Part shown: piece after piece, positions 50,929 through 52,226 of the stretch
How the letters are laid out: each line of letters starts with the position of its first letter
Position numbering within the stretch: the first letter of the stretch is position 1
Assembly: GCA_029907205.1 (NCBI GenBank)
Contig: JARYMI010000008.1
Span: 20,031-84,030 of the forward strand
Direction of reading: 5' to 3'
Length of the DNA stretch: 64,000 nt
Source: Clostridiales bacterium
GTDB taxonomy: Bacteria; Acidobacteriota; Aminicenantia; Aminicenantales; UBA8522
The notes under the pieces: model-generated
Seen by the model: only the letters and a program-made list of their open reading frames with translations
Told to the model about the DNA's origin: nothing
Databases searched by the model: none
Position numbers and translations under genes: made by a program

Positions 50929-52128
50929 ATGGCGAAGGCAAAGTTTGAGAGGACGAAGCCGCATTTAAACATTGGGACGATTGGGCATGTGGATCATGGG
51001 AAGACGACGTTGACGTCGGCGATCACGAAGGTGCTGCATCGGTTGAATTCGAAAGTGCAGGTGAAGGAGTACGGGGAGATTGACAATGCGCCTGAGGAGA
51101 AGGAGCGGGGGTTGACGATACAGATAGCGCACATTGAGTATGAGACGGCGAAGCGGCACTATGCGCACATAGATTGTCCTGGTCATGCGGACTACATCAA
51201 GAACATGATTACTGGGGCGGCGCAGATGGACGGGGCGATATTGGTGGTGGCGGCGGATGATGGGCCGATGCCGCAGACGCGGGAGCACATATTGTTGGCG
51301 AGGCAGGTGAACGTGCCGGCGGTGGTGGTTTTTATGAACAAGGTGGATTTGGTGGGGGATGCGGAGATATTGGATTTAGTGGAGTTAGAGGTACGGGAGT
51401 TATTGACGAAGTATGAGTTTCCTGGGGACAGGATACCGGTGGTACGTGGGAGTGCGTTGAAGTCGATGGAGTCGGATGGGGATCCTGGGTATGAGTGGAA
51501 CAAGAGGATAGTGGAGTTGATGGATGCGGTGGATGAGCACATACCGGAGCCTTTGCGGTTGGTGGACCAGCCGTTTTTGATGCCGATAGAGGACATTTTT
51601 TCGATATCTGGGCGTGGGACGGTGGTGACGGGACGAGTGGAGAGGGGGAAGGTGAAGGTAGGGGAGGAGGTGGAGATTGTTGGGTTTGGGGAGACGCGGA
51701 AGCGGGTGGTGACGGGGGTGGAGATGTTTCGGAAGCTATTGGATGAGGGGATAGCTGGTGACAACATAGGGGTGTTGTTGAGGGGGACGGACAAGGAGGA
51801 GGTGGAGAGGGGGATGGTGTTGGCGAAGCCTGGGTCGATCACGCCGCATCGGCGGTTTAAGGCTGAGATATATGCGTTGAAGAAGGAGGAGGGGGGGCGG
51901 CACACGCCGTTTTTCACTGGGTATCGGCCGCAGTTTTATTTTCGGACGACGGACGTGACGGGGAGTGTGAAGTTGCCGGGTGGGGTGGAGATGGTGATGC
52001 CTGGGGACAACGTGAATTTGGAGATTGGGTTGATCACGGACGTGGCGATGGAGAAGGGGTTACGGTTTGCGATTCGGGAAGGGGGGCGGACGGTCGGAGC
52101 GGGGACGGTGACGGAGATCATGGAGTAA
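50929..52128 (+). CDS. tuf: Elongation factor Tu
   Basis: [17 protein letters not shown] and NKVD GTPase motifs. 399 aa. AGGAGG RBS. Conserved position after the Thr-Tyr-Gly-Thr tRNA cluster. Confidence 0.97.
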
Positions 52129-52226
52129 GGAGGACGGAGGGAAAGGCGAAGAACAGAGCATAGGACTCAGCTGACCGGGTCGTCAATGCACGTAGTTCCT
52201 CGCCAGGAGATGACAGAGAGCAGAAG

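Follow-up and report, generated by a model that had tools for sequence, protein, structure and literature searches.

A G-loaded, C-purged tuf gene in Aminicenantes: a tuf-specific anomaly and its candidate causes

The gene of elongation factor Tu (EF-Tu, the translation factor of highest abundance in the cell), tuf, normally shows near-maximal codon adaptation and is a textbook case of codons tracking the tRNA pool. Duplicated tuf genes reportedly undergo concerted evolution by gene conversion, which Lathe and Bork in 2001 and Abdulkarim and Hughes in 1996 are said to have described. In Escherichia coli, tufB is located in the thrU-tyrU-glyT-thrT-tufB operon. An ancestral concatenated layout, tufB...rpoBC-str-tufA-S10, was described in PMC6735719. 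The tufB of Salmonella is autoregulated by intragenic Rho termination, and tuf is among the few genes known to be under intragenic Rho control (Brandis et al. 2016, in the accounts of PMC6735719 and PMC12360218). The tuf gene studied here is located in a stretch of 64,000 nt (the window) of a member of the Aminicenantales (Acidobacteriota; assembly GCA_029907205.1, contig JARYMI010000008.1, positions 20,031 to 84,030). It has the same tRNA leader and layout as the E. coli operon, and the gene order fits the ancestral one. Its coding sequence (CDS) is extremely rich in G and poor in C. An earlier description of G-skewed tuf genes was not found in the literature searched.

The anomaly is real, extreme and specific to tuf. 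It covers the CDS, which is followed by a short purine-rich flank:

50929 to 52128, plus strand: tuf, CDS of EF-Tu, 399 amino acids, the G-loaded and C-purged gene
52129 to 52170, plus strand: purine-rich 3' flank of tuf, 42 nt with 18 G, 16 A, 6 C and 2 T

By machine count, the coding strand has a G fraction of 0.42 and a C fraction of 0.14. At third codon positions, the fractions are 0.67 for G (G3), 0.08 for C (C3), 0.07 for A (A3) and 0.18 for T (T3), corresponding to a third-position GC skew (sk3) of +0.78. The window's 48 other open reading frames (ORFs) of at least 100 amino acids span -0.41 to +0.20 (mean -0.113, standard deviation 0.114), which makes tuf the outlier in its conserved tRNA-tuf-rpmG-secE-nusG context (z = 7.8). 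The sliding GC skew is 0.35-0.59 over 50.8-52.15 kb and about 0-0.15 on both sides; it rises at about 50.85 kb and drops at about 52.17 kb. An initial reading of the letters without database searches (the sequence-only reading) had pointed to this outlier, to its G-dominated, C-poor strand and to the continuation for some 40 nt past the stop codon. Its hand counts were exact, both for 51661-51720 (36 G, 4 C) and for a line of rplK at 53401-53460 (18 G, 23 C). The encoded protein is, as it had also stated, a complete and ordinary EF-Tu with the three standard domains GTP_EFTU, D2 and D3.

Codon usage in tuf follows a rule: the G-ending codon is taken wherever one is available, TTG replaces CTG and ATA is over-used. 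The near-uniform choice of NNG codons first seen by eye holds in the machine count for glycine (GGG 36 of 41), threonine (ACG 24 of 26), alanine (GCG 22 of 25) and valine (GTG 35 of 41), and glutamate (GAG 38 of 39) and lysine (AAG 24 of 25) behave alike. Codons with a purine ending only (NNR) have a G:A ratio of 69:2. Leucine is encoded by 22 TTG, 5 TTA and 2 CTN codons in total, arginine by 17 CGG and 7 AGG, phenylalanine by 12 TTT and 1 TTC. Isoleucine has 14 ATA, 9 ATT and 5 ATC codons, one ATA more than had been estimated (13, 9 and 5). At four-fold degenerate sites, G occurs 153 times (85%), T 19 times (10%), A 8 times and C once. A3 is below the background of 0.15, and T3 is not raised (background 0.18-0.19). 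After T, C is replaced by T in the tuf of this lineage (TTT, ATT). The window neighbours favour GCC, GTC, ATC, CTC/CTG and GGC, a preference unlike that of tuf, in line with the sequence-only reading. At codon position 2, C is also low (0.193, compared with a mean of 0.222±0.014 over all tufs), so the force reaches the amino acid sequence. The sense strand is 64% purine and 63% G+T; the neighbours, at 52-59% purine, have no G-over-C skew. Seven consecutive G at 51891-51897 (GAGGAGGGGGGGCGG) lie within the essential tuf CDS. Such a homopolymer is prone to slippage and to errors in long-read assemblies.

The skew is present in 8 of 8 independent Aminicenantes tuf sequences (sk3 0.54-0.78). G3 is nearly constant in these at 0.65-0.67, while the choice of T versus C drifts with the genomic GC content. 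The boundaries of the skew match the CDS in each Aminicenantes contig checked, and context and composition are the same in contigs from JGI, NCBI and ENA. The best EF-Tu relatives are 90-97% identical and originate from metagenomes; the named ones are Aminicenantes. Exact-match look-ups for EF-Tu, NusG and L11 of the window gave no match. In five relatives (loci L083, L165, L166, L167 and L168), tuf has a G3 of 0.65-0.67, an sk3 of 0.54-0.71 and essentially no 78-nt windows with more C than G, and the flanking translation genes are normal in all five. Normal composition in Aminicenantes was observed for fusA, rpsL/G/J, rplC/D/B, rpsC, rplKAJL, nusG and rpoBC, with about 25 ribosomal-protein genes in total.

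A relative on a JGI contig has two tuf genes on the same strand, about 16 kb apart. The L081 copy follows the tRNAs; the L082 copy is located between rpsL-rpsG-fusA and the S10 operon. The identity of the two is 99.8%, with an sk3 of 0.56-0.57 in each, and nusG, rplKAJL, rpoB, rpoC, rpsL, rpsG, fusA, rpsJ, rplC and rplD on the same contig have values from -0.17 to +0.10. The identical tract extends from the Shine-Dalgarno sequence to the stop codon between unrelated flanks. Judged by sequence, this is a classical gene-conversion signature between tuf paralogues, and both copies share the skew because gene conversion keeps them identical. The two-copy evidence is that of the L081/L082 contig; the window's own second copy would lie beyond its 3' end. 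The corresponding start of the tract in the window is:

50916 to 50923, plus strand: Shine-Dalgarno sequence AAGGAGGT of tuf; the identical tract of tufA and tufB in relatives begins about here

The purine-rich flank at 52129-52170 (TAAGGAGGACGGAGGGAAAGGCGAAGAACAGAG...) looks like the spacer between tuf and rpsJ of L082 (TAAGAGGGAACTCAGGGAAGGCAGAGGACGACAATG). It may be an overextended gene-conversion tract from the fusA-linked copy that ran past the stop codon. In the metagenome-assembled L165 (9562-11558; GCA_975902535.1, CDLKIX010000002.1), a tufB-type upstream region (pur genes, an ECF sigma factor and four tRNAs) is joined to a tufA-type downstream region (rpsJ, rplC and onwards), and the block of about 16 kb with rpmG-secE-nusG-rplKAJL-rpoBC-rpsLG-fusA is missing. 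As the missing genes are essential, this junction is almost certainly an assembly collapse across two identical tufs. Several other contigs of relatives start or end at tuf (L166, L167).

The sequence-only reading had also considered that the bias is linked to expression and shared with other highly expressed genes. This was seen for the second tuf copy (L081/L082). It was not seen for fusA, for the ribosomal-protein genes with rplL, whose product is present four times per ribosome, or for the genes of rubrerythrin and glutamate dehydrogenase (gdh), all of them without skew. The effect is thus specific to tuf and is not a general expression-linked codon selection. The gene tracks its neighbourhood in descent. 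Between the window and L081, identities are 92% for EF-Tu, 94% for NusG, 85% for L11, 81% for L1 and 85% for RpoB. The nearest EF-Tu relatives outside the clade (L004, L014, L011, L022 and L057) are also nearest for RpoB, L1 and NusG, and these linked proteins are closest to Acidobacteriota. The comparison of EF-Tu with RpoB that had been proposed gave concordant nearest relatives (Spearman 0.66 between the similarities, from an identity ranking and not a full phylogeny).

A survey compared tuf with flanking ORFs in 164 loci listed, obtained from a genome scan and a metagenome scan. Its listings are mostly distant relatives, with close relatives fetched singly; the sample is biased to query-like EF-Tu, and the ORF-based background is approximate. 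Among the loci listed, the sk3 of tuf minus that of its flanks is +0.12 at the median and +0.55 at the 90th percentile, and it peaks at +0.90, a value shared by the window and L131. The value of tuf exceeds the locus median by more than 0.45 in 17 of 172 tufs among the loci listed. Only a few short, probably spurious ORFs come close to the skew of tuf among 1,444 non-tuf ORFs from about 170 loci listed. The only clear shifted neighbouring translation gene among the loci listed is the rpsJ of L015 (7224-7532), directly downstream of tuf, with an sk3 of 0.39, which is 0.47 above the locus median.

Rokubacteria are represented among the strongly skewed tufs by L009, which shares its EF-Tu clade with L085 and L086. 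Further ones come from Gemmatimonadota (L066), Glassbacteria (L072), a gammaproteobacterial metagenome-assembled genome (MAG; L080) and several unnamed metagenome lineages (L115, L118, L131, L134, L147 and L163). The tufB of E. coli is unskewed (sk3 -0.17). The skewed tufs are dispersed over several clades of the EF-Tu similarity map, and L032 (sk3 +0.43) and L123 (sk3 -0.39) differ at 94% protein identity. Both observations indicate repeated, fast evolution and not the spread of one allele. The repeated origin in other, mostly uncultured phyla in turn points to a tuf-specific force that maintains the skew, and not to inheritance from a donor. What all skewed lineages have in common is that almost all four-fold and NNR sites carry G (in L009, four-fold sites have 185 G compared with 9 C) and that TTG is used over CTG; ATA is often over-used. 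Codons with a pyrimidine ending (NNY) vary: the window, L115, L080, L147 and L134 shift to T, and L081, L009, L085 and L100 keep C.

We are confident that this is a native, tRNA-linked tuf in a lineage that recoded tuf alone, with gene conversion between its copies, that the recoding had repeated origins and that a tuf-specific force acts on it. For the nature of this force, the leading guess, a tentative one, is selection on the transcript, and not on decoding, that keeps Rho off tuf. Rho requires about 80 nt of unstructured RNA, rich in C and low in G, with YC dinucleotides (Y, pyrimidine), and regions without bubbles of more C than G (C>G) gave no significant Rho termination in vitro (PMC6144790). 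We used the C>G-free criterion with 78-nt windows from the same source. It defines one stretch around tuf:

50752 to 52360, plus strand: C>G-free stretch of 1,609 nt from tRNA-Gly/Thr through tuf into rpmG; no 78-nt window has more C than G

This stretch is 3.4 times as long as the next longest in the 64 kb (478 nt). Within tuf, C minus G per 78-nt window has a maximum of -2 and a mean of -21.9. The density of YC is 3.8 per 100 nt in tuf and 11-15 in the neighbours, a depletion of about four-fold, and reaches 29.7 on the antisense strand. In the tufB of E. coli, 42% of the windows are C>G, and YC amounts to 11.7 per 100 nt. No C>G window at all was present in 14 of 164 tufs among the loci listed, and all 14 are skewed. 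In codon families without a G-ending option, the C-endings that form YC (TTC, ATC) are avoided more than NAC codons. This gap in avoidance increases from -0.02 to +0.18 with the skew (correlation coefficient 0.38, p 5e-6; tufs from genomes of at least 50% GC, which are not phylogenetically independent). The RNA-binding sites of Rho appear to prefer A and C, according to a tentative consensus (PMC12360218); the third positions of tuf are depleted of just these two bases.

The mechanism would operate as follows. The recoding removes every C>G window and about three-quarters of the YC dinucleotides required for Rho loading. RNA polymerase could then complete tuf even if ribosomes lag behind, as might happen right downstream of the untranslated tRNA leader or under a shortage of EF-Tu. 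The antisense RNA of tuf, being C-rich, would suit Rho ideally as a substrate. In enterobacteria, tufB is regulated via a Rho site; the skewed lineages would instead be constitutively Rho-proof. That several uncultured phyla independently recoded tuf alone into a G-rich transcript, poor in C and YC and refractory to Rho loading, is a possibility that we regard as doubtful rather than probable. The complete explanation, joining the confident part to the Rho mechanism, is the best we can offer and is still somewhat more likely to be wrong than right.

Several observations weigh against protection from Rho. The link between Rho and tuf is circumstantial in these lineages. A rho gene was not among 20 window ORFs scanned; Rho is broadly conserved and absent from some phyla (PMC12360218). 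The flanks of skewed tufs (60 nt downstream and -60 to -16 upstream) have no more G over C than those of unskewed tufs, in a comparison that leaves out two loci with truncated upstream sequence. This result is tempered by the shortness of the untranslated flanks, which cannot hold a Rho site of about 78 nt. At codon junctions, YC is not avoided beyond what codon usage gives. CGG is taken over the C-free AGG, TCG, which contains YC, over AGT, and the A-ending ATA is favoured though A is otherwise avoided. L081, L009, L085 and L100 still prefer C in NAC codons; NAC staying C-preferred in several skewed lineages suggests a pattern that is partly codon-specific. The fusA and ribosomal-protein genes run the same risk of uncoupling and are not recoded. 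Finally, E. coli has regions of 0.6-1.1 kb that are C>G-free, and they are no rarity (PMC6144790), and the absence of C>G windows alone is no proof of selection.

The first alternative is a decoding system private to tuf, which we consider unlikely but the most serious competitor. Nearly all favoured codons, including the odd ATA, are those of C34 tRNAs, that is, tRNAs with CNN anticodons, with the lysidine tRNA-Ile2 for ATA and tRNA-Leu(CAA) for TTG. These tRNAs would be under-used and independent of wobble modification. Their use would avoid competition with the proteome and be robust to starvation and hypomodified tRNAs. The background genome is C3-rich, which would leave NNG-specific tRNAs in low demand. 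The constant G3 across Aminicenantes, in which only T versus C drifts, agrees with such a choice. Codon-level hints come from the confinement of the skew to the translated and converted tract, from CGG over the C-free AGG and from the persistence of NAC, which many skewed lineages keep or favour in the way that normal highly expressed genes do.

The ribosomal-protein genes, which are essentially free of codon bias, do not fit this alternative. Their 3,730 codons (from the window and the 97% relative L083) resemble the 13,557 ordinary codons: GAG is at 0.52, 0.53 and 0.96 in ribosomal-protein genes, ordinary genes and tuf, and AAG at 0.53, 0.52 and 0.94. Most codons differ by less than 0.4 log2 units between ribosomal-protein and ordinary genes, and the G:A ratio at NNR is unchanged, rplL included. 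A faint shift towards tuf is present (C3 0.33 compared with 0.38, purine endings (R3) 0.52 compared with 0.44), and the codon shifts correlate with those of tuf (correlation coefficient 0.36, p 0.006). A force proportional to expression cannot be so non-linear as to nearly spare these genes. In the Akashi test, G-ending codons were not enriched at conserved residues of the window tuf (odds ratio 0.79, not significant), and pooling 12 skewed tufs gave the opposite direction (odds ratio 0.75, p 6e-4). Ordinary translational selection therefore fits poorly. For TTT+ATT against TTC+ATC, codon pairs that are read by one tRNA, tuf has a ratio of 21:6 where the background has 702:1349; neither this preference nor the drop of C at position 2 can come from tRNA choice. 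The use of TTG over CTG needs an extra assumption, as both are read by C34 tRNAs. The tRNAs seen in the window are the five of the operon.

Selection for a weakly structured mRNA that does not pair with itself, an extreme purine loading with G only, is improbable in our view. Loss of G=C parity would here reduce folding and the pairing between copies of this most abundant mRNA and so ease ribosome flow. It accounts for the weak folding of tuf, with -35.9 kcal/mol per 150 nt compared with -42.1 after recoding to the neighbours' usage (z 3.9; about 15% weaker), and for 124 self-complementary 6-mers compared with 430 (z -6.9). The purine content of the sense strand and the faint parallel shift of the ribosomal-protein genes agree as well, and purine loading against RNA-RNA interaction was already proposed (Lao & Forsdyke 2000, cited in PMC5028192). 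Yet A, the base least prone to pairing, is avoided, and G still pairs with U. The order of the codons shows no optimisation towards low structure (z -0.5 under synonymous permutation), complementarity to other mRNAs (z -1.6) and tRNAs (z +0.6) is not significantly altered, and nothing in this explanation accounts for why tuf alone is affected. Purine loading by Szybalski's rule is rejected as a class on account of the low A3 and of neighbours without G-over-C skew.

Slightly less credible still is a strand-asymmetric mutation or repair process without selection, caused by heavy transcription through deamination of C and A on the non-template strand or through transcription-coupled repair of the template. 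Francino and Ochman reportedly described a transcription-associated C-to-T asymmetry on the non-transcribed strand. The changes CTG to TTG and NNC to NNT are C-to-T, NNA to NNG is A-to-G, and all are products expected from deamination of the coding strand. CGG has no synonymous escape by transition and is retained; C is low at position 2, and the ribosomal-protein genes shift faintly in parallel. But 85% G and 10% T at four-fold sites are unreachable by transitions alone from a C-rich background, ATA needs a transversion, and T3 is not raised. Furthermore, the skew ends at the Shine-Dalgarno sequence and the stop codon, though the tRNAs, rpmG, fusA and rpsJ belong to the same probable transcription units. 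The proposal of a gene-specific strand-asymmetric force in the sequence-only reading survives in its general form, with selection fitting better than mutation; its G-quadruplex variant does not, as zero canonical (G3+ N1-7)x4 motifs were found and the 40 G-runs of at least three equal the expectation from synonymous permutation.

The divergence at four-fold sites is 0.22 in tuf and 0.56-0.70 in the neighbours. It was not used as evidence for selection, since for such a bias the saturation ceiling is only about 0.27 and the low divergence results from the bias itself.

Very improbable is a role of recombination between the tuf copies, with a G/T-rich, Chi-like composition either as a by-product of biased repair or favoured because it promotes RecA-dependent homogenisation. 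RecA prefers GT-rich DNA. The tuf gene is the sole duplicated gene in the region, its skewed segment equals the identical tract from Shine-Dalgarno sequence to stop, and the coding strand is 63% G+T with GGTGGTGG-type motifs. However, E. coli and many other bacteria have two converting tufs without skew. Biased gene conversion as known raises G and C jointly and creates no G-over-C skew, and we know of no mechanism that would provide the strand specificity.

Two further candidates were rejected. Internal Shine-Dalgarno-like motifs number 21, compared with 24.4±2.0 under synonymous permutation. The open antisense frames of 107 and 241 amino acids that had been reported do exist, and a functional antisense ORF is not indicated, as recodings to the neighbours' codon usage give equally long frames (mean 219 codons, 95th percentile 370, real 247); their interpretation as a by-product of the skew did not hold.

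Least credible, and hardly worth retaining, are the xenologous replacement, assembly chimera or deliberate recoding that the sequence-only reading had listed: the composition is sharply unlike the flanks and identical tuf repeats do misassemble in relatives (L165), but the same pattern with CDS-matched boundaries and conserved context in all eight independent assemblies speaks against a chimera, the skew of both copies, an EF-Tu divergence that tracks the linked genes with the same Acidobacteriota nearest outside the clade and the scatter of skewed tufs speak against a transfer, a donor with such usage throughout its genome is impossible, as genes are distributed over both strands, and a natural lineage-wide trait is not a deliberate recoding.

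The neighbouring features of tuf are:

50324 to 50352, plus strand: promoter-like TTGACA-17-TAAGAT upstream of the tRNA cluster, 10 of 12 matches; candidate operon promoter by consensus match only
50493 to 50884, plus strand: tRNA-Thr(UGU), tRNA-Tyr(GUA), tRNA-Gly(UCC) and tRNA-Thr(GGU), the leader of tuf
52227 to 52376, plus strand: rpmG (L33), A-rich with a mild skew (sk3 0.27 over 50 codons)
52423 to 52498, plus strand: tRNA-Trp(CCA), followed by secE, nusG, rplKAJL and rpoBC, all compositionally normal

A terminator-like site was not found between tuf and rpmG; rpmG is thus probably co-transcribed with tuf. Among cis-regulatory RNAs, the Rfam search near tuf gave the tRNAs only. A weak promoter-like sequence, TTGACG-18-TATGCT (9 of 12; 52186-52157, minus strand), points antisense into tuf from just downstream. 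The number of promoter-like matches near tuf is within chance expectation. An antisense transcript would have 42% C and 14% G.

The remainder of the window consists of ordinary housekeeping genes. The ThyX ORF (Thy1 family; 40251-41756, plus strand) has 501 amino acids, about twice the usual length, and two matched Thy1 stretches. This ORF looks like a tandem-domain fusion, and its L081 homologue, with 535 amino acids, is long as well. The tyrosyl-tRNA synthetase ORF (41821-43374, minus strand) has 517 amino acids with the catalytic domain from residue 118, and the L081 homologue has 413. The called start is probably too far upstream; otherwise an N-terminal extension would be present. At 3953-12708 on the minus strand, two tandem pairs of a sensor histidine kinase and a sigma-54-dependent response regulator are encoded, with recO between the pairs. 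One of the kinases is NtrY-like.

The skew of tuf is unexplained by conventional codon adaptation, transfer, misassembly, G-quadruplexes or Shine-Dalgarno motifs. It points to a strong selective force on the synonymous sites of a single gene, other than ordinary translational optimisation. Identification of this force, be it Rho avoidance, a private tRNA set or another one, would provide a new determinant of synonymous-site evolution. If Rho avoidance is true, a central translation factor would be insulated from transcription-translation uncoupling constitutively and by composition, and a natural synonymous recoding of a whole gene would have its cause in a transcription factor rather than in decoding. 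There are practical consequences. As a widely used reference for highly expressed genes, tuf would in these lineages mislead codon-adaptation indices as well as predictors that derive growth rate from codon bias, composition-based detectors of horizontal gene transfer would falsely flag tuf, and identical tuf copies cause assembly collapses in MAGs.

Among known systems, the codon adaptation of highly expressed genes resembles the tuf of the window in its strong gene-specific bias and in the partial retention of NAC. It differs in that the bias is here not common to the ribosomal-protein genes, is not enriched at conserved residues and extends to choices within the same tRNA and to codon position 2. 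The favoured ATA, GGG, CGG, TTG and TTT are codons that highly expressed genes classically use rarely. The concerted evolution of tuf duplicates matches the layout of the window clade and the near-identity confined to the CDS; it explains why both copies share the skew and not the skew itself. Transcription-associated asymmetry has in common that the coding strand of a gene under heavy transcription is depleted of C. Here the expected enrichment of T is absent, that of G prevails, and the effect does not go beyond the borders of the CDS. Purine loading (Lao & Forsdyke 2000, cited in PMC5028192) likewise comprises an excess of purines in the sense strand and less self-complementarity. It is described as acting genome-wide and on A and G both, whereas here one gene is affected and A3 is depleted.

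The autoregulation of Salmonella tufB by Rho, in the accounts of PMC6735719 and PMC12360218, concerns the same operon type, with four tRNAs and tuf near secE-nusG. It also concerns the same issue, the action of Rho on tuf transcripts upon uncoupling of transcription and translation. According to these accounts and the composition of the genes, enterobacterial tufB keeps its C>G windows together with a switchable leader structure, and the tuf CDS in the window has no C>G window. In comparison to enterobacterial tufB, the tuf of the window, known here from its sequence, would represent constitutive immunity and not regulation.

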